7,220 bases of DNA from a virus (lineage: Duplodnaviria > Heunggongvirae > Uroviricota > Caudoviricetes), in IMG/VR virus record IMGVR_UViG_2585427790_000002; one strand, written 5' to 3'. Both the position numbers and the translations under genes were made by a program. Shown here in pieces: positions 1-7,220 of the stretch. Position 1 is the first letter of the stretch. Each line of letters starts with the position of its first letter. The notes beneath the pieces were generated by a model. It saw only the letters and a list, made by a program, of their open reading frames with translations, searched no databases and was not told where the DNA came from.

Positions 1-50
1 GCGAGGTCGCCGCCCCGTAACCTGTCGGATCGCCGGAAAGGACCCGCAAA
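1..50 (-). other. cos: Lambda-type cos packaging site (cosN cohesive-end sequence at 4-15, cosQ-like element around 38-46), in reverse orientation; the cosB side lies beyond the left window edge
   Basis: Positions 1-15 gcgaggtcgccgccc are the reverse complement of the lambda left end GGGCGGCGACCTCGC (12-nt cohesive end GGGCGGCGACCT). Positions 16-50 are the reverse complement of the lambda right terminus ...GCGGGTCCTTTCCGGCGATCCGACAGGTTACG. This match is from recalled lambda sequence, not an alignment. Confidence 0.85.
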
Positions 51-214
51 ATGATAATAATTATCATCTACATGTCACAACGTGCATCTACGCCATCAAA
101 CCACGTCAAATAATCAATTATGACGCAGGTATCGTATTAATTGATCTGCATCAACTTAACGTAAAAACAACTTCAGACAATACAAATCAGCGACACTGAA
201 TACGGGGCAACCTC

Positions 215-409
215 ATGTCAACGAAGAACAGAACCCGCAGAACAACAACCCGCAACATCCGCTTTCCTAACCAAATGATTGAACAAATTAACATCGCTCT
301 TGAGCAAAAAGGGTCCGGGAATTTCTCAGCCTGGGTCATTGAAGCCTGCCGTCGGAGACTAACGTCAGAAAAGAGAGCATATACATCAATTAAAAGTGAT
401 GAAGAATGA
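215..409 (+). CDS. ylcI: Small basic protein of unknown function (YlcI/DUF3950-like, 64 aa); sequence pattern suggests a ribbon-helix-helix DNA-binding fold
   Basis: ATG at 215 with GGGG 9 nt upstream; 64-aa ORF. Size and position (between cos and ybcW) match the DLP12 gene order. Arg-rich N-terminus followed by RNIRFP / NQMIEQINIALEQ / GSGNFS / AWVIEACRRRL, which fits a strand-helix-turn-helix RHH pattern. Confidence 0.75.
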   Translation: MSTKNRTRRTTTRNIRFPNQMIEQINIALEQKGSGNFSAWVIEACRRRLTSEKRAYTSIKSDEE

Positions 410-573
410 ACATCCCGCGTTCTTCCCTCCGAACAGGACGATATTGTAAATTCACTTAATTACGAGGGCATTGCAGTAATTGAGTTGCAGTTTTACCACT
501 TTCCTGACAGTGACAGACTGCGTGTTGGCTCTGTCACAGGCTAAATAGTTTGAATGATTAGCAGTTATGGTGA

Positions 574-780
574 TCAGTCAACCACCAGGGAATAATCCTT
601 CATATTATTATCGTGCTTCACCAACGCTGCCTCAATTGCTCTGAATGCTTCCAGAGACACCTTATGTTCTATACATGCAATTACAACATCAGGGTAACTC
701 ATAGAAATGGTGCTATTAAGCATATTTTTTACACGAATCAGATCCACGGAGGGATCATCAGCAGATTGTTCTTTATTCAT
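574..780 (-). CDS. ybcW: Small acidic hypothetical protein (YbcW-like, 68 aa)
   Basis: 68-aa ORF on the minus strand with ATG at 780 and GGAG 8 nt upstream. Convergent with ylcI and divergent from ybcV, as in DLP12. Function unknown. Confidence 0.7.
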
Positions 781-1065
781 TTTGTCGCTCCATGCGCTTG
801 CTCTTCATCTAGCGGTTAAAATATTACTTCAAATCTTTCTGTATGAAGATTTGAGCACGTTGGCCTTACATACATCTGTCGGTTGTATTTCCCTCCAGAA
901 TGCCAGCAGGACCGCACTTTGTTACGCAACCAATACTATTAAGTGAAAACATTCCTAATATTTGACATAAATCATCAACAAAACACAAAGAGGTCAGACC
1001 AGATTGAAACGATAAAAACGATAATGCAAACTACGCGCCCTCGTATCACATGGAAGGTTTTACCA

Positions 1066-1476
1066 ATGGCTCAGGTTGCCATTTTTAAAGAAATATTCGA
1101 TCAAGTGCGAAAAGATTTAAACTGTGAATTGTTTTATTCTGAACTAAAACGTCACAACGTCTCACATTATATTTACTATCTAGCCACAGATAATATTCAC
1201 ATCGTGTTAGAAAACGATAACACCGTGTTAATAAAAGGACTTAAAAAGGTTGTAAATGTTAAATTCTCAAGAAACACGCATCTTATAGAAACGTCCTATG
1301 ATAGGTTGAAATCAAGAGAAATCACATTTCAGCAATACAGGGAAAATCTTGCTAAAGCAGGAGTTTTCCGATGGGTTACAAATATCCATGAACATAAAAG
1401 ATATTACTATACCTTTGATAATTCATTACTATTTACTGAGAGCATTCAGAACACTACACAAATCTTTCCACGCTAA
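1066..1476 (+). CDS. ybcV: DUF1398-family prophage protein (YbcV-like, 136 aa from ATG 1066); alternative upstream in-frame starts at 1024 and 943
   Basis: The ORF track gives 943..1476 (177 aa). The internal ATG at 1066 is preceded by GGAAGG with 8-nt spacing and gives a 136-aa product, the length I recall for YbcV. The upstream ATGs lack a comparable RBS. Confidence 0.7.
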
Positions 1477-1766
1477 ATCATAACGTCCGGTTTCTTCCGT
1501 GTCAGCACCGGGGCGTTGGCATAATGCAATACGTGTACGCGCTAAACCCTGTGTGCATCGTTTTTAATTATTCCCGGACACTCCCGCAGAGAAGTTCCCC
1601 GTCAGGGCTGTGGACATAGTTAATCCGGGAATACAATGACGATTCATCGCACCTGACATACATTAATAAATATTAACAATATGAAATTTCAACTCATTGT
1701 TTAGGGTTTGTTTAATTTTCTACACATACGATTCTGCGAACTTCAAAAAGCATCGGGAATAACACC

Positions 1767-2060
1767 ATGAAAAAAATGCTACTCGCTACTGCGCTGGCCC
1801 TGCTTATTACAGGATGTGCTCAACAGACGTTTACTGTTCAAAACAAACCGGCAGCAGTAGCACCAAAGGAAACCATCACCCATCATTTCTTCGTTTCTGG
1901 AATTGGGCAGAAGAAAACTGTCGATGCAGCCAAAATTTGTGGCGGCGCAGAAAATGTTGTTAAAACAGAAACCCAGCAAACATTCGTAAATGGATTGCTC
2001 GGTTTTATTACTTTAGGCATTTATACTCCGCTGGAAGCGCGTGTGTATTGCTCACAATAA
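1767..2060 (+). CDS. bor: Bor outer-membrane lipoprotein (serum-resistance lipoprotein of lambdoid phages), 97 aa precursor
   Basis: N-terminal signal peptide with lipobox LITGC (MKKMLLATALALLITGC). Sequence is recognisably lambda Bor/BorD. Opposite strand to the lysis genes, as in lambda. Confidence 0.92.
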   Translation: MKKMLLATALALLITGCAQQTFTVQNKPAAVAPKETITHHFFVSGIGQKKTVDAAKICGGAENVVKTETQQTFVNGLLGFITLGIYTPLEARVYCSQ

Positions 2061-2066
2061 TTGCAT

Positions 2067-2092
2067 GAGTTGCCCATCGATATGGGCAACTC
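2067..2092. terminator. Perfect 26-bp palindrome (GAGTTGCCCAT CGAT ATGGGCAACTC) between convergent bor and Rz; candidate bidirectional terminator or protein-binding site
   Basis: Seen directly. It sits 7 nt after the bor stop and includes the Rz stop codon. Flanks are only modestly U-rich on either strand. Confidence 0.45.
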
Positions 2093-2553
2093 TATCTGCA
2101 CTGCTCATTAATATACTTCTGGGTTCCTTCCAGTTGTTTTTGCATAGTGATCAGCCTCTCTCTGAGGGTGAAATAATCCCGTTCAGCGGTGTCTGCCAGT
2201 CGGGGGGAGGCTGCATTATCCACGCCGGAGGCGGTGGTGGCTTCACGCACTGACTGACAGACTGCTTTGATGTGCAACCGACGACGACCAGCGGCAACAT
2301 CATCACGCAGAGCATCATTTTCAGCTTTCGCATTAGCTAACTCCTTCGTGTATTTTTCATCCAGTGCAGCAACATCACGCTGGCGCATCTGCATGTCAGT
2401 AATTGCCGCGTTCGCCAGCTTCAGTTCTCTGGCATTTTTGTCGCGCTGGGCTTTGTAGGTAATGGCGTTATCACGGTAATGATTAACAGCCCATGACAGG
2501 CAGACGATGATGCAGATAACCAGAGCGGAGATAATCGCGGTTACTCTGTTCAT
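2092..2553 (-). CDS. rzpD: Rz i-spanin (inner-membrane spanin subunit), 153 aa from ATG 2553
   Basis: N-terminal transmembrane segment ([18 protein letters not shown]) followed by a charged, coiled-coil-like periplasmic domain. ATG at 2553 overlaps the endolysin stop (ATGA). The ORF-track start at 2565 is a GTG four codons upstream. Confidence 0.9.
2151..2333 (-). CDS. rzoD: Rz1 o-spanin (outer-membrane lipoprotein spanin subunit), embedded in the +1 frame of Rz
   Basis: 60-aa ORF wholly inside Rz in a different frame. Signal peptide with lipobox VVVGC, then a proline-rich mature segment (PPPPPAW...PPPDW), the typical Rz1 signature. Confidence 0.8.
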
Positions 2554-3047
2554 TGCTGACCCCACAAACAGATTTCACGCTCAATCTCACGACGAGTCAT
2601 GAGACCTTTCCATTGCTTACCGCCAGAATATGTCCAGCGACGTAGCTGATCACATGCGCCTTTGATATCGCCCTGGTTTATTTTGCGAAGAAGCGTCGAT
2701 GTTCTGAAATTGCCAGCGCCCACGTTGTAAACGAACGAGTAAAGAGCGCCGCGCGTTGTTTCCGGTATATCAACTTTTATGTACGGGTTAATTTGTCTGG
2801 CGACCGTGGCAAGGTCTTTATTCAGGAGGGCTTTGCATTCTGCTTTGGTATACGTTTTACCGAGCATGATGTCTTTTCCTGTATGCCCGTGACATACAGT
2901 CCATACACCAACAATATCTTTGTATGGTATGTAGCTGACACCTTCCAGACCATCGTTACCACTTGGGCCAGTGATTAACACTGATGCTATAGCAATTGCT
3001 CCGCCACCAATAGCAGCAGCAACGGCTTTTCGTAATGATGGAGGCAT
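2550..3047 (-). CDS. rrrD: SAR endolysin (phage-21 R-type lysozyme with N-terminal signal-anchor-release domain), 165 aa
   Basis: Gly/Ala-rich weakly hydrophobic N-terminal segment ([20 protein letters not shown]) characteristic of a SAR domain, followed by a lysozyme catalytic region ([17 protein letters not shown]). Near-identical to my recollection of phage 21 R / DLP12 RrrD. Start overlaps the holin stop (TAATG). Confidence 0.93.
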
Positions 3048-3262
3048 TATTCACCTCTCGCAGCCTTGCGCTTATCTTCTTTAATCTTGAAATAAAGGTT
3101 TGTCAGGTACGTCAGCAGGCCAAATACCAGGCTACCCAGCACACCTATTGCTGCCCACTGTGAGGGCGTGACTTTATCGAGCAGCTGTAAAAACCAGTAA
3201 CCGGCACTACCTGCTGAGGTGCCATAGGCGACACCCGTTGTTAACTTATCCATGGATTTCAT
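3047..3262 (-). CDS. essD: Class II pinholin (phage-21 S-type) with dual-start motif MKSM (antiholin from Met1, holin from Met4), 71 aa
   Basis: Sequence [24 protein letters not shown]...[22 protein letters not shown] has two transmembrane segments and a charged C-terminus. RBS GAGGTGGGG precedes ATG 3262. The ORF-track start at 3307 adds 15 residues without an RBS and is rejected. Confidence 0.9.
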
Positions 3263-3649
3263 AACCCCACCTCGCAGACAAAGCGGGTGTAAATTGAGGG
3301 AATACAACGTATCGCAAAAAAGCAGAAACGTAACAGACTCGGAGTCAGTGAATAACTCAGGTATTGAGTTATCAGCTAATATCGAGACTCAGAAAATGGA
3401 AAAACCAGCTCGACGGCGGGTTTAAGCTGTGTGACGAAGTAACCACTCTTAACAGCATAACCAATTTTTTACGTACGTAAACCACTGAATGATATTTATG
3501 AGAATGCTACCGAGTGTTCAAAACACCACCACAAATACATAAGAAAACCTCAACAAATAACCAATAAATAATTTCAGGCGTTATTTTTAGTTGATTTAAA
3601 TTAAACTGCCGAATTATAGAGCCTCCATAAATAACAACTATTAATATAA

Positions 3650-3849
3650 ATTAGCTAATAGGTTTACTTTTGTTCAAATAAGAGCCACAAATAGGTTTCG
3701 ATAGAAAAAGTTCAGATAAAAATAGAGATCTACTTCACAAATTAAATGAGAAACTAAAACTTACATCTTGAAATAATCACATTGATTAGATGAATATTTA
3801 TCGCGCAGTGACATCATTTTTTAATAATAGTTCAAAAAAAGGGCTCACG
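3650..3849 (+). promoter_or_regulatory. nmpC upstream regulatory region with two OmpR-box-like sequences (about 3661-3680 and 3761-3780); promoter not precisely mapped
   Basis: GGTTTACTTTTGTTCAAATA (3661-3680) and TTACATCTTGAAATAATCAC (3761-3780) resemble the TTTAC(A/T)TTTTG-type OmpR half-sites of ompF/ompC as I recall them. Strongly AT-rich; candidate -35 TTGATT/TTGAAA hexamers but no clean -10. Confidence 0.3.
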
Positions 3850-4932
3850 ATGAAAAAATTAACAGTGGCAATTTCTGCTGTAGCTGCATCAGTACTGATG
3901 GCGATGTCTGCTCAGGCAGCTGAAATTTATAATAAAGACAGTAACAAGCTGGATCTATATGGGAAAGTTAATGCCAAGCACTACTTCTCCTCTAATGATG
4001 CAGATGATGGTGATACTACTTATGCCCGTCTTGGCTTCAAAGGTGAAACCCAAATCAACGATCAACTGACTGGTTTCGGTCAGTGGGAATATGAATTCAA
4101 AGGCAACCGCGCTGAATCTCAAGGCTCCTCCAAAGACAAAACCCGTCTTGCATTTGCAGGCCTGAAATTCGGGGACTACGGCTCAATCGATTACGGCCGT
4201 AACTACGGTGTAGCATATGACATCGGTGCGTGGACTGACGTTCTGCCAGAATTCGGTGGCGATACCTGGACCCAAACAGATGTGTTCATGACTGGTCGCA
4301 CCACTGGTGTTGCAACTTATCGTAACAACGACTTCTTTGGTCTGGTTGATGGTCTGAACTTTGCTGCTCAGTATCAGGGTAAAAATGACCGCACTGACGT
4401 AACTGAAGCTAATGGTGATGGTTTCGGTTTCTCCACTACTTATGAGTATGAAGGATTCGGTGTAGGTGCAACCTATGCTAAATCTGACCGCACTAATAAT
4501 CAGGTTATCTACGGTAACAACAGCCTGAATGCATCTGGTCAAAATGCTGAAGTATGGGCAGCTGGTCTGAAATATGATGCGAACAACATCTATCTGGCTA
4601 CCACCTATTCTGAAACCCAGAACATGACTGTTTTTGGTAATAACCATATTGCCAACAAAGCACAAAACTTCGAAGTAGTTGCACAATATCAGTTCGACTT
4701 CGGTCTGCGTCCGTCCGTTGCTTACCTGCAATCTAAAGGAAAAGACTTGGGTGCGTGGGGTGATCAGGACCTGGTTGAATATATTGATGTAGGTGCAACC
4801 TATTACTTCAACAAAAATATGTCCACTTTTGTTGATTACAAAATCAACCTGATTGATAAGAGCGATTTCACGAAAGCATCTGGCGTTGCTACCGATGATA
4901 TCGTTGCTGTAGGTATGGTTTACCAGTTCTAA
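3850..4932 (+). CDS. nmpC: General bacterial porin of the OmpC/OmpF/PhoE family (prophage-encoded NmpC/Lc-type), 360-aa precursor, apparently intact
   Basis: Signal peptide [23 protein letters not shown] then AEIYNKD..., porin motifs and C-terminal ...VGMVYQF with terminal Phe. ATG at 3850; the ORF-track start at 3790 is a 20-codon extension. No internal stop or IS. Confidence 0.93.
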
Positions 4933-4940
4933 TTTGATTA

Positions 4941-4979
4941 CTAAAAGATATGTTGCGGGAGGCTTTGCCTCCCCAACAT
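4941..4979 (-). terminator. Candidate intrinsic terminator on the minus strand (tR'-like, downstream of the late promoter); the same hairpin sits directly 3' of the nmpC stop on the plus strand
   Basis: GC-rich stem GGGAGGC/GCCTCCC extended by ATGTTG/CAACAT, loop TTT. On the minus strand it is followed by AUAUCUUUU. A second hairpin AAGTGGCT-CCCTCA-AGCCACTT lies at 4982-5003. Confidence 0.4.
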
Positions 4980-5039
4980 ATAAGTGGCTCCCTCAAGCCA
5001 CTTCCTTTAGGAGCACAACCTTGCTTCTAACTATATAAA

Positions 5040-5120
5040 CCTTCTGTTATATATTACCCTTTATTTTTGGGGGCGTTGCAACGCCCCATTTTTAATAATT
5101 TTTAGTAAACAATTGGCATA
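5040..5120 (-). promoter_or_regulatory. Candidate Q-dependent late promoter (pR') and qut region immediately downstream of Q; exact -35/-10 not resolved
   Basis: Placed by analogy with lambdoid phages, where pR'/qut lies just 3' of Q. Minus-strand candidates include TTGCAA (5081-5076) with GTAATA/TAATAT 17-19 nt downstream. Purely positional and motif-based. Confidence 0.3.
5069..5105 (+). terminator. Rho-independent terminator for the plus strand (likely nmpC terminator): GC hairpin plus T-tract
   Basis: GGGGCGTTGCAACGCCCC (perfect inverted repeat) followed by ATTTTTAATAATTTTT on the plus strand. On the minus strand the hairpin is followed by A-rich sequence, so it is not a good minus-strand terminator. 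Confidence 0.55.
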
Positions 5121-5504
5121 TTAATTAGAGTTATTAACAACGATATCCATCTCTAACCGGATATCTAATGCCATTAACATCCCTTCAATTATGCCCTCAG
5201 CCTTCTGTAACCTTTTCCCGATATAACCATCAGAGCAGCAATGCTTACCTGCCAGTGACATGAATGTCATACCGACTACATAATAATCTACTAATAAATC
5301 GTGCAAATCGCTGTTGTTCTTTTTCAGACGGGCCATGCACCCGCAAATAATCATCGCGTCATCGTCACAACATTGCGGGCGAGATTTTACTTTTGAAGTA
5401 ATTAATCCCTTAAAACCGGCGGCAATGGACGACCAGGTCACATCTTCATGATTATTAGCCGCCCACGCTCCCCAACGCTCAAGAACCATCTGAATATCAC
5501 GCAT
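5121..5504 (-). CDS. quuD: Late-gene antiterminator Q (phage 82/DLP12 QuuD type), 127 aa
   Basis: [24 protein letters not shown]... with Cys-rich segments ([15 protein letters not shown]). ATG at 5504 preceded by GGAG. The ORF-track start at 5519 is a TTG five codons upstream. Confidence 0.92.
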
Positions 5505-5589: not shown

Positions 5590-5730
5590 TCATACTCCTG
5601 CTCCTGTCAGGGTTTTGGCGTAATTCTTCAGTATTCGGTAATCGGTCAAAACAGAACCGGGGAAACGATATAAGCGCAGATGCCCCCAGCGGTGGCGAAG
5701 AAGTTCTGCCATATAAAACTCAAACATCAT
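5590..5730 (-). CDS. ylcG: Small hypothetical protein (YlcG-like, 46 aa); absent from the ORF track because it is under 60 aa
   Basis: Hand translation of the minus strand gives [46 protein letters not shown]. The ATG at 5730 overlaps the rusA stop (ATGA). Size and position between rusA and Q match DLP12 ylcG. Confidence 0.6.
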
Positions 5731-6089
5731 TCATTCCCCATTTCGGTGATGGTCAGTTCCAGCCTCCCACCTTTGGTAACAGGCATCTTCACAACGCGGT
5801 AATCAACGACCTGAGCATCATCCAGCCAGAAACCTGCTTTGGTGAGTGCGTCAAAAGCGGCTTTTTGCAGATTATCCAGGTCACGGCGACGGCGATCCGG
5901 CATGTGGCACTCAATACGGATTTTCACTGGCATAGCCAGGCCGATATCCAGCATTGCGTTTTTAATGATTCGGGTGACGTTATCGCGGTATGCCTGCCCT
6001 TCTGCGCTGATGTGCGTGCGCCCGCGATTATGGCGGTAATAGCGATTATTGCTCGGAGGCCAGGGTAATGTGATGCTGTAGGTATTCAC
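5727..6089 (-). CDS. rusA: RusA Holliday-junction resolvase (endodeoxyribonuclease RUS), 120 aa
   Basis: [38 protein letters not shown]... is recognisably RusA. Start codon is GTG at 6089, overlapping the ybcO stop (GTGA). Confidence 0.93.
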
Positions 6090-6939: not shown

Positions 6940-7220
6940 TGAACCGCCCCGGGTTTCCTGGAGAGTGTTTTATCTGTGAACTCAGGCTGCCAGATCATCG
7001 TTTCCGATGGAAGCATAATAAGCTTTTTCTGCTTCTGCCGGAGGAGTATGGCCCAGCCTTTCCAGCAATCGTCGATTGTTATACCAGTCCACCCACGTGA
7101 GTGTGGCCAGTTCCACTTCTGCACGGTTTTTCCAGCTCTTACGGTGTATTACCTCCGCTTTGTAAAGACCATTGATGCTCTCCGCCATCGCGTTGTCATA
7201 CGAGTCGCCTGTACTTCCTG
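6940..7220 (-). mobile_element. Right end of an IS3-family insertion sequence (IS629/IS3411-like terminal inverted repeat); element continues beyond the window
   Basis: Terminal sequence TGAACCGCCCCGGGTTTCCTGGAGAGTG starting at 6940 (5'-TG end typical of IS3 family; matches my recollection of the IS629 inverted repeat). It abuts the truncated ninB-like gene and lies 42 bp beyond the transposase stop. Confidence 0.75.
6982..7220 (-). CDS. IS3-family transposase OrfB (DDE integrase core), C-terminal fragment; N-terminus outside the window
   Basis: The frame is open from the window edge: ...GSTGDSYDNAMAESINGLYKAEVIHRKSWKNRAEVELATLTWVDWYNNRRLLERLGHTPPAEAEKAYY..., a typical rve-domain C-terminus (YDNA...ES.NG motif region). 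Confidence 0.85.
   Translation of the reverse strand, partial: GSTGDSYDNAMAESINGLYKAEVIHRKSWKNRAEVELATLTWVDWYNNRRLLERLGHTPPAEAEKAYYASIGNDDLAA

Follow-up and report, generated by a model that had tools for sequence, protein, structure and literature searches.

The stretch of phage DNA analysed here (the window; 7,220 nt of a Caudoviricetes genome, IMG/VR record IMGVR_UViG_2585427790_000002) carries on its minus strand a gene for an S21-type holin (3047-3262, in a longest ORF that reaches 3307) and on its plus strand a porin gene whose ATG is at 3850. Judged from the ORF lists and the base composition, the block between them (3308-3849) is a divergent intergenic control region. Pfam matches of the neighbouring genes are PF04971 and PF00959 on the holin and SAR endolysin side, and PF00267 (Porin_1) and PF06530 (antiterminator Q) on the other. 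The initial annotation had described the block as AT-rich and free of ORFs of 60 aa or more, and both statements hold: its G+C content is 32.5% (28.6% at 3500-3849) compared to 44.2% for the whole window, and the largest ORF inside it encodes 57 aa (3252-3425, plus strand) and is broken in K-12 by a 16-bp deletion. Small ORFs that are called inside the block in phage ev099 were discarded, being conserved neither in the window nor in K-12. Searches of the whole window with Rfam 15 covariance models (permissive, E ≤1) and ARAGORN returned no RNA families and no tRNAs. Consensus scans for promoters and for terminators (the latter over 3200-3900) called nothing in the block, which indicates that both of its promoters are sub-consensus and does not imply that promoters are absent.

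A known control region with two conserved islands

The block is 91.8% identical to its counterpart in the K-12 prophage DLP12, 93.2% to that in phage PA-2 and 98.2% to that in phage ev099; more broadly, 36 phage records contain it at 92-99% identity, and 3167 of 5426 complete E. coli genomes have a match. The order S21-type holin, block, porin and Q is shared with the K-12 and PA-2 annotations. In the conservation profile, two sharply conserved islands border a variable spacer: the sequence at 3700-3849 is almost invariant among relatives, conservation drops to 0.72-0.90 at 3560-3700, and it is 0.96-0.97 in the second island, which holds the proposed late promoter and terminator module described below. 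Relative to DLP12 nmpC and PA-2 lc (J02580), near identity holds for the proximal 150 nt, from the CRP site and OmpR-bound stretch to promoter and leader, whereas many positions differ in the distal spacer. Moreover, the porin gene is intact here while the K-12 copy bears IS5, window positions 3309-3324 (16 bp) are missing from K-12, and the terminator stem that is perfect in K-12 has GCTGG in this window. Copies with 80% identity near yedK and fliE were considered as the yedS porin locus, a reading rejected for want of homology to the region upstream of yedS in K-12; these copies are degenerate DLP12-like remnants with ybcM, ybcL and emrE. The block is an ordinary copy of the known and already studied prophage nmpC/lc control region, of which the first reading was partly right.

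The porin promoter and its CRP site

The porin promoter, PnmpC (3768-3797, plus strand), is predicted from its sequence to comprise the -35 hexamer TTGAAA (3768-3773), an 18-bp spacer and the -10 hexamer GAATAT (3792-3797). Binding and effects of OmpR, CRP and H-NS at this promoter, as well as its start at a G, are taken from the K-12 papers. In K-12, PnmpC is a typical sigma-70 promoter with a G start mapped by 5'RACE and with an activity that is lost on deleting -199 to -1 (PMC11677980). Only G3803 and G3805 sit 6-8 nt past the -10, and the porin 5' UTR (3803-3849, plus strand) would accordingly begin at one or the other, with a leader of ~45 nt. The 43 nt listed between ChIP-exo peak centre and start agrees with G3805 provided that the sign given in the table is inverted; the literal value (+43) would move the start to an A, 131 nt before the ATG, in conflict with the 5'RACE G.

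In K-12, two CRP sites serve to activate PnmpC, OmpR, IHF and MprA act as its repressors, and RyhB targets it (PMC11677980), with RyhB pairing reported within the porin leader. The CRP site in the window (3719-3740, plus strand; core AGAGA-N6-TCACA at 3724-3739) follows the PA-2 annotation, where it lies at 1363-1383 of J02580, equivalent to window 3722-3742, and it is 0.99 conserved. Its core has 2 mismatches to the TGTGA-N6-TCACA consensus, a match that is not rare by chance, and its centre is at -71.5 to -73.5, depending on the G chosen as the porin start. In K-12, nmpC was recovered by CRP genomic SELEX and its activation by CRP is reported. By the K-12 evidence, CRP, which the initial annotation missed, would be the main activator of the porin promoter. 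A search with the strict IHF consensus WATCAANNNNTTR gave no matches and hence no position for the IHF site reported in K-12.

OmpR as a probable repressor of the porin promoter

Two strings in the block, found at 3661-3680 and 3761-3780 as quoted, had been taken to resemble OmpR half-sites of ompF and ompC. By eye the likeness stands, with 15/20 identities to ompF F1 for the first (GGTTTACTTTTGTTCAAATA, plus strand) and 14/20 to ompC C1 for the second, but it is not above chance. The OmpR boxes used were confirmed to be present upstream of ompF and ompC in K-12, and the scans were compared with 1000-2000 dinucleotide shuffles of the block. A best match of at least 15/20 arose in 21% of shuffle trials, and at least three matches of at least 14/20 in 19%. 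Weight-matrix scans gave P = 0.54 with a 20-mer matrix and P = 0.08-0.10 with a half-site matrix, both derived from six K-12 boxes and poorly discriminating (leave-one-out scores of C2 and C3 were negative). By sequence statistics, therefore, the motifs score no better than shuffled AT-rich DNA.

The first string is most likely a chance match to F1. It lies 125-145 nt upstream of the porin start, where the block is least conserved (local conservation 0.78), and outside the K-12 ChIP-exo peak, and its matching bases vary among relatives, with TTTAC here and TTTAT in K-12, PA-2 and others. The second is part of a candidate OmpR operator (3750-3781, plus strand) made up of three 10-bp phased repeats, GAAACTAAAA, CTTACATCTT and GAAATAATCA, which also includes the porin -35, differs from K-12 at one base and is conserved at 0.98-0.99. 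OmpR ChIP-exo peak P4 of K-12, 58-118 nt upstream of the nmpC ATG (window 3732-3792), covers this second motif with a weak signal (signal to noise 2.26), and nmpC mRNA goes from 19 to 46.5 FPKM in the comparison which the ChIP-exo paper summarises as OmpR repression. The proposal that EnvZ/OmpR controls the porin thus survives in that K-12 nmpC is a known OmpR target with a peak over the second motif, but the mode is repression. On the K-12 evidence, OmpR represses from a site over the porin -35 and does not activate, in the ompF/ompC style, from tandem upstream boxes. Support for OmpR comes from the published, near-identical K-12 DLP12 locus and not from motif statistics.

The ompF and ompC promoters are similar in that they serve porin genes, are under EnvZ/OmpR control and have TTTAC/GAAAC-type half-sites with 10-bp phasing. 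There, however, OmpR boxes F1-F3 and C1-C3 recruit polymerase, whereas here a single short site would repress and the activator would be CRP. An array of the ompF/ompC type (three adjoining boxes of 20 bp each between about -100 and -40, with a weak -35) is absent upstream of the porin, where one ~30-bp site lies over the -35. The initial annotation had combined ompF/ompC-style activation from two boxes with a late transcript that starts beside Q, crosses the block and is processed or holds a small RNA. Although the strings resemble F1 and C1 and OmpR does bind the K-12 homologue, the published mode of action is repression, the peak covers only the proximal motif, over the -35, relatives do not conserve the distal one and there is no three-box array between -100 and -40; the combined model, whose transcript half is taken up below, is very improbable.

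A spacer bound by H-NS in K-12

The AT-rich variable spacer (3483-3700) is the counterpart of most of the H-NS-bound 'promoter island' of K-12, whose coordinates, transferred through the alignment, correspond to about window 3417-3769. An involvement of H-NS had been suspected and is supported by the literature, with the K-12 nmpC/essD intergenic region (576129_354 in Table 1 of PMC3661553) being H-NS bound in 'all studies' compiled there. Its listing as an H-NS-bound island with little productive transcription, and motif statistics at chance level, would also suit a view of the whole block as AT-rich filler of a horizontally acquired cassette, silenced by H-NS and with only incidental factor sites. 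We give this view hardly any credence, since filler would not account for two sharply conserved islands around a variable spacer, nor for a K-12 PnmpC that is strong enough to drive IS5 transposase expression and whose deletion has a phenotype. Mutation of ompR and temperature, besides, both shift transcript levels (16.5-fold induction of nmpC at 37 °C relative to 23 °C), and porin-side responses to regulators are already reported for K-12. While promoter islands are seen as largely silent (Panyukov and Ozoline 2013), at this one two specific regulated promoters explain the conserved parts.

A probable late promoter and terminator inside the block

The conserved island on the holin side (3392-3481, minus strand) is homologous to pR', the late promoter of Stx phages, and to the terminator that follows it, the match to their annotated features covering 3400-3482. 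Its -35, TTTACG (3476-3481), aligns with that of the feature annotated as 'pR' putative late promoter' in Stx phages 06-3462 and Ss-VASD, and alignment with the Stx homologues places the -10, TATGCT (3454-3459), 16 bp from it, with a predicted start at ~3447-3450. These putative hexamers match the consensus at 8/12 positions (the scan threshold was 9), compared to 9/12 for the Stx homologue with TATCAT. A consensus scan of the Stx phage picks the same hexamers as its annotated pR', a feature that is labelled 'putative' and copied among Stx-phage records by similarity. The initially transcribed block that follows, TAAGAGTGGTTAC (3439-3451, minus strand), is invariant in all five aligned sequences and has a single exact copy in the window. 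Within this region, TGGTTACTT (3437-3445) repeats the promoter's own TGGTTATGCT, and is hence a candidate sigma-dependent pause element, a role suggested by analogy with described Q systems.

About 50 nt from the pR' start is a predicted tR'-type intrinsic terminator (3392-3420, minus strand), with the stem-loop CCCGC-CGTCGA-GCTGG at 3405-3420 and then a U tract at 3392-3404. The stem has a C.U mismatch in this window, where the hairpin fails the terminator scan that its homologues in K-12 and the Stx phage pass, and the leader fold with tR' is weak (-9.5 kcal/mol, z = -0.2 against shuffles). With a mismatched stem and a fold no better than that of shuffles, termination may be leaky, and an alternative stem, CAGCUU/GAGCUG, may substitute for the mismatched one. 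The mismatched version is also found in the phage records of PA-2 and ev099 and in 16-17 IMG/VR loci, and other lineages have unrelated hairpins with U runs at the tR' position. Between tR' and the holin ribosome-binding site, a late-leader hairpin is predicted at 3334-3391 (minus strand; core 3351-3373); the fold of 3250-3449 on this strand has -52 kcal/mol and z = -2.2, and the hairpin stretch is conserved at 0.87-0.93 among porin-type loci.

That the late transcript crosses the block, as was first proposed, is at odds with this arrangement: from the homology of 3392-3481 to the Stx pR' and terminator, it would start inside the block. Nothing promoter-like was found in a consensus scan of both strands between Q and the porin gene (4933-5120), and the window has no second pR' block. 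Nor did a small RNA hidden in the block find support, with no Rfam or tRNA match and the ~50-nt leader as the sole small RNA predicted. The model that couples ompF/ompC-style activation to a crossing transcript is already largely contradicted.

The leader finds parallels in lambda 6S RNA and in StxS of Stx phages, for which there is likewise a constitutive late promoter, nearby termination and a short RNA expected in lysogens. The lambda 6S RNA is 194 nt long. StxS has 258 nt and is processed to 74 nt, compared to only ~50 nt for the RNA predicted here, which has no sequence relation to StxS.

Overlapping the pR' -35 is a perfect 14-bp dyad, TTTACGTACGTAAA (3468-3481, minus strand). Every Q subtype has a dyad in this place but with another sequence (TTTACGATCGTAAA, GCGTACGC, GCGGTCCGC, TGTTATAACA or TGGAATTCCA), and the background frequency of a dyad arm of at least 7 in 40 nt is 0.7%. 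We regard it as a candidate site for protein binding, possibly by Q. The repeat bound by Q21 is direct, in contrast to the symmetric dyad over the -35 seen in this lineage.

A porin cassette separates Q from its probable late promoter

The antiterminator gene (5121-5504, minus strand) encodes a Q of the QuuD type with 127 aa and a match to the full 118-position PF06530 model (3.5e-53), and shows a distant relation to the solved Q21 structures. Placement of QuuD in the Q82 family was rejected, since phage 82 Q belongs to PF06323 and is unrelated, whereas QuuD, as a PF06530 protein, belongs to the Q21/Q933W family. Over residues 1-120, Q is 80% identical to Q of Stx1 phage Ss-VASD and it is unrelated beyond; the similarity to Stx1-phage Q stops exactly where the porin cassette begins. 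It lacks the 24 C-terminal residues of Stx1-type Q and ends 7 residues past the conserved domain. The cassette, comprising promoter, gene, 3' UTR and terminator (~3483-5144), separates Q from pR' and is oriented the other way, and no flanking repeats that would suggest a transposition-type insertion were found. With the Q gene 1.64 kb away (1640 bp between its stop codon and the pR' -35) and the cassette in between, Q must act in trans on a non-adjacent promoter.

An IMG/VR search for the pR' block, run as an exact 18-mer, found it in 120 stretches, 99 of which have a PF06530 Q upstream on the same strand; the remaining ones have no Q match, and several of these have little upstream sequence. 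In 75 of the 99 related loci with Q, pR' is likewise separated from it. The late cassette in the window otherwise resembles that of the Q21/Q933W family in H-19B-like Stx phages, with which it has in common a Q of PF06530, a promoter homologous to theirs, the conserved initial block, a predicted intrinsic terminator ~50 nt further on and the lysis genes after it. It differs in layout: in the Q21 structure paper, the Q gene is followed directly by the pR' unit, and in Stx phages the 3' end of Q runs into pR', whereas here an oppositely oriented porin cassette splits the two and the terminator stem is mismatched.

For DLP12, control of the essD operon by a Q-type antiterminator is published, and a sigma-E-dependent (RpoE) promoter has also been reported for the lysis genes. 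An alternative reading would treat 3392-3481 as a relic, with the lysis genes transcribed from the sigma-E promoter or by N-modified read-through past Q, antisense through the porin. The 8/12 hexamers, the mismatched terminator stem, the published RpoE control and the 24 residues missing from Q would fit such decay. Yet the version with the mismatched terminator recurs in PA-2, ev099 and the 16-17 IMG/VR loci, the module equals the porin promoter in conservation, its pR' block is accompanied by a PF06530 Q in 99 of the 120 stretches, the Pfam domain of Q is complete, and Q-dependent control of the DLP12 cassette is on record. We consider a relic unlikely and the module probably a working Q-dependent late switch.

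Across the QuuD/H-19B branch, the Q-pR' junction carries porins, Kiwa, a KAP NTPase, or HNH or NYN nucleases, and this cargo is usually opposite in orientation and low in G+C. Phage 'morons' are usually described downstream of pR', whereas in this branch the late switch and its regulator are routinely kept apart. The junction as a hotspot for cargo and defence genes, and a dyad that changes with the Q subtype, may both be new observations. It is conceivable, if rather doubtful, that both of two further points apply: that the junction is a preferred landing site for cargo in this branch, and that the dyad is a symmetric Q-recognition element.

Two divergent modules, probably under separate control

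Taking the sequence homologies, conservation pattern, Q family and cassette position found in this analysis together with the K-12 reports, the block probably consists of two divergent, independently regulated modules separated by an AT-rich, H-NS-binding spacer. It is more fully occupied than the initial annotation had it, combining porin control with a phage late promoter and terminator in opposite directions. On the porin side, CRP would activate from ~72-74 nt upstream of the start, OmpR would repress via the phased half-sites at 3750-3781 over the -35, and H-NS would coat the AT-rich DNA upstream of the promoter. The porin would then be made in the lysogen under host control, in a catabolite-sensitive manner, at lower levels at high osmolarity and at higher levels at 37 °C. 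The holin side would be the late-gene switch, at which polymerase would pause in the conserved initial block and be modified there by Q; transcripts would end at tR' without Q, leaving a short leader RNA, and with Q would read through into holin, endolysin and spanins.

For the finding as first given, little changes, the wiring of OmpR, CRP and H-NS having been published for K-12. In annotation, pR' and tR' belong beside the holin and not beside Q. The porin unit is best treated as a self-contained, host-controlled cassette inserted between an antiterminator and its target promoter, a layout that accounts for porin expression in the lysogen with the late switch left undisturbed. The site it occupies is a recurrent one for cargo, and in related prophages it carries anti-phage defence genes.

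An AT-rich spacer in a late region of DLP12/PA-2 type

The window corresponds to the late region of a DLP12/PA-2-type lambdoid prophage, with rusA (5727-6089), ylcG (5590-5730), the antiterminator gene Q (5121-5504; PF06530), an S21-type holin gene (3047-3262; PF04971), the endolysin gene (2550-3047) and Rz/Rz1 on the minus strand, and the porin gene (3850-4932; Porin_1), an nmpC/lc orthologue, and bor on the plus strand. The gap under study (3308-3849) separates the divergently oriented holin and porin genes. At the right edge, a minus-strand ORF (6982-7188) that abuts the nin-region genes resembles by eye the C-terminal portion of an IS3-family transposase, and the prophage may be interrupted near this point.

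The block is AT-rich and contains no ORF of at least 60 aa, as first noted: its G+C content is 32.5% (28.6% at 3500-3849) versus 44.2% for the whole window, in which Rfam families (E <= 1) and tRNAs were searched for and gave no match. Small ORFs called automatically in the block of phage ev099 lack conservation. A 57-aa ORF (3252-3425) is disrupted in K-12 by a 16-bp deletion; the missing 16 bp (3309-3324, GTATCGCAAAAAAGCA) are present in the window, PA-2 and ev099 and, read on the minus strand, include a U run of the late leader.

The block is 92-99% identical across 36 phage records, and 3167 of 5426 complete E. coli genomes contain a match. Among the copies are that of PA-2 (J02580, the lc sequence first determined) and that of K-12 DLP12, which lies between essD and nmpC. 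A four-way alignment showed the 150 nt adjoining the porin ATG to be almost invariant. When the 600 nt preceding this ATG were aligned in 39 distinct versions, the fraction identical to the window was 0.96-0.97 at 3400-3480, 0.72-0.90 at 3560-3700 and 0.98-0.99 at 3700-3849, and 3705-3850 is almost unchanged even in copies only ~80% identical overall, which are degenerate remnants of prophages, located near yedK and fliE (their identification as the yedS locus was ruled out by checking K-12 yedS). Altogether, the block combines the known control region of nmpC/lc with the oppositely oriented phage late promoter (pR') and its terminator (tR').

A probable late promoter inside the block

A sensitive search with 3263-3560 matched more than 300 Stx-phage records, over 3400-3482 only and in every case at the 3' end of Q. 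In phages 06-3462 and Ss-VASD this stretch carries the annotation of a putative late promoter pR', which in 06-3462 is followed closely by an annotated rho-independent terminator. Alignment to Stx phages places the pR' -35 (TTTACG, 3481-3476) and -10 (TATGCT, 3459-3454; 16-bp spacer) on the minus strand, followed by an invariant block (TAAGAGTGGTTAC, 3451-3439) and the tR' hairpin (CCCGC-CGTCGA-GCTGG, 3420-3405) with its U tract (3404-3392). The window hexamers match 8 of 12 consensus positions; a consensus scan recovered the aligned pR' and terminator in an Stx phage and the terminator in K-12, and called no terminator at 3200-3900 in the window. No second copy of the pR' block was found in the window, and at 4933-5120, between the porin gene and Q, the scan gave nothing resembling a promoter. 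The late transcript, thought initially to cross the block, is therefore predicted to begin within it, at ~3447-3450, and a terminated pR' transcript of ~50 nt is expected.

The tR' stem reads GCTGG in the window, PA-2 and ev099, and GCGGG in K-12, SfII and Stx phages. This G-to-T change breaks the stem: the 58-nt leader of the window folds at -9.5 kcal/mol (z = -0.2), against -21.9 kcal/mol (z = -3.2) for its Stx homologue. The change also gives rise to an alternative stem (CAGCUU/GAGCUG) immediately ahead of the U tract, and late termination may be leaky in this lineage. The remaining leader, as far as the holin start, is structured (z = -2.2). GCTGG also occurs in 16-17 of ~40 IMG/VR pR' loci with a porin cassette, besides PA-2 and ev099, and is thus a frequent allele in copies from phages and prophages.

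Overlapping the pR' -35 is a perfect 14-bp dyad (TTTACGTACGTAAA, 3468-3481, minus strand). At this position other Q subtypes have other perfect dyads (TTTACGATCGTAAA, GCGTACGC, GCGGTCCGC, TGTTATAACA and TGGAATTCCA), each Q cluster having its own, and homology between lineages begins exactly at the dyad. Because symmetry is maintained by paired changes across Q subtypes, this comparison suggests that the dyad may be a Q-recognition site.

The porin promoter and its regulators

The porin promoter could be assigned, partly by inference, to a -35 (TTGAAA, 3768-3773) and a -10 (GAATAT, 3792-3797; 18-bp spacer) on the plus strand, transcription starting at G3803 or G3805 and giving a ~45-nt leader. 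The CRP site annotated in PA-2 corresponds to 3722-3742 (core AGAGA-N6-TCACA), its centre ~72-74 nt upstream of the start, near a class I position. The second 'CRP binding site' of the 1986 PA-2 record falls at 3427-3447, ~400 nt from the porin ATG and inside the conserved initially transcribed region of pR', and is more likely part of the late-promoter pause/loading region than a porin CRP site. In K-12, the nmpC promoter is of the sigma-70 type, with a G start found by 5'RACE; it is activated by CRP via two sites, repressed by OmpR, IHF and MprA, and abolished in activity by deletion of -199 to -1, and its leader is targeted by RyhB (PMC11677980); nmpC was also recovered by CRP genomic SELEX. 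CRP was overlooked in the initial account of porin control.

That account had pointed to two OmpR-box-like strings, which we find at 3661-3680 and 3761-3780, and suggested that the porin is wired into osmoregulation. Reference boxes F1-F4 and C1-C3 were confirmed upstream of K-12 ompF and ompC at the expected distances. The best matches were to F1 at 3663-3682 (15/20 identities) and to C1 at 3760-3779 (14/20). Dinucleotide shuffles of the block gave a best match of at least 15/20 in 21% of cases and three or more matches of at least 14/20 in 19%, and in the block the top score of a 20-mer OmpR matrix had P = 0.54 and a half-site matrix P ~0.1. Motif scores are hence no better than for shuffled sequence, the very outcome that the initial account had named as refuting, and the case for OmpR rests on other evidence.

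That evidence is from the literature: nmpC, previously known to be OmpR-repressed, was confirmed by ChIP-exo (peak P4, 576106-576166), its mRNA going from 19.0 to 46.5 FPKM in the comparison summarised there as OmpR repression (PMC5438342). The table coordinates are those of U00096.2, and an offset of 777 was needed to fit the ompF peak and start to the ompF ATG in NC_000913.3. The mapping used the ompF leader of 110 nt and, as anchor, the nmpC ATG at 576825 in NC_000913.3. P4 thereby lies 58-118 nt upstream of the nmpC ATG, or at window 3732-3792, so that it covers the second motif and a CRP half-site and not the first motif; across it the window and K-12 are equal in length and differ at 3 bases, only 1 within 3750-3792. 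The peak-to-start distance listed for nmpC (+43; PMC5438342, Supplementary Table 1) is opposite in sign to that expected from the 5'RACE G start and the table's own ompF row; taken literally, it puts the start at an A 131 nt upstream of the ATG. With the sign reversed, the start is G3805, in agreement with the 5'RACE G.

The second motif contains the porin -35 hexamer, and three 10-bp phased repeats on the plus strand (GAAACTAAAA/CTTACATCTT/GAAATAATCA, 3750-3779) would suit tandem OmpR binding and steric repression. The first motif sits in a variable stretch (identity 0.78), has the sequence TTTATTTTTATTCAGCC in K-12 and PA-2 and yet others in more distant copies, and is probably a chance match. 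For the proximal motif the idea of OmpR control was right in substance, the published mode being repression. An imperfect direct repeat, TGTTCAAAACACCACCACAAATA (3515-3537) and TGTTCAAATAAGAGCCACAAATA (3671-3693), 78% identical and 156 nt apart, overlaps with its second copy the right half of the first motif.

The suggested role of H-NS was right in substance, again from the literature: the K-12 nmpC/essD intergenic region (576129, length 354; window ~3417-3769) is one of 78 'promoter islands' and is H-NS-bound in all compiled ChIP studies (PMC3661553). Published work places the DLP12 essD operon under a Q-type antiterminator, RpoE and Hha, and an essD/lysis promoter-region fusion is repressed by high osmolarity (NaCl or sucrose), low pH and 28 C. 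Expression of nmpC is 16.5-fold higher at 37 C than at 23 C, and for nmpC the effects of OmpR and temperature go the same way. H-NS and OmpR may act jointly on both divergent promoters by way of the spacer they have in common.

The porin cassette and the Q-pR' junction

The PF06530 domain of the window Q, of the Q21/Q933W family according to the Q21 structure paper, is complete; the protein is distantly related to the solved Q21 structures and unrelated to phage 82 Q (PF06323). Over residues 1-120 it has 80% identity to Stx1-phage Q; it then diverges and ends (5121-5144, minus strand) 7 residues after the similarity stops, and so is without the last 24 residues of the 144-aa Stx1-type Q. The C-terminal residues of Q21 contact RNA polymerase; the window Q suggests that this tail is replaceable or dispensable in its prophage.

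In Stx phages pR' overlaps the end of Q, whereas in the window they are 1640 bp apart, the interval being a porin cassette of AT-rich promoter, gene, 3' UTR and terminator. The segment 4933-5125 was found only in porin-carrying phages. The 3' UTR (4933-5097), which has no Rfam match, shares 96.9% identity with the DNA that follows lc in PA-2 and closes with a strong terminator (5070-5087 and a T run). It is the region to which ipeX, an sRNA-like inhibitor of OmpC and OmpF expression, was reportedly mapped (Castillo-Keller et al. 2006).

A wider search with an exact 18-mer around the invariant pR' block returned 120 IMG/VR stretches, a sample that is redundant and selected by exact word, so that its counts are indicative only. 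A PF06530 Q lies upstream on the same strand in 99 of these and abuts pR' in only 24 of the 99; in the remaining 75 the two are 0.6-2.4 kb apart, the intervening DNA being low in G+C and its ORFs mostly on the opposite strand. The porin is the cargo in 38 loci; other cargo includes KwaB and a membrane partner (Kiwa), a KAP NTPase (PDC-S20), an HNH-like protein (PDC-M68A), an NYN nuclease and an NA37 protein. Moron insertion is usually described as downstream of pR'; the Q-pR' junction (window 3483-5144; IMG/VR loci L011-L130) is a cargo site.
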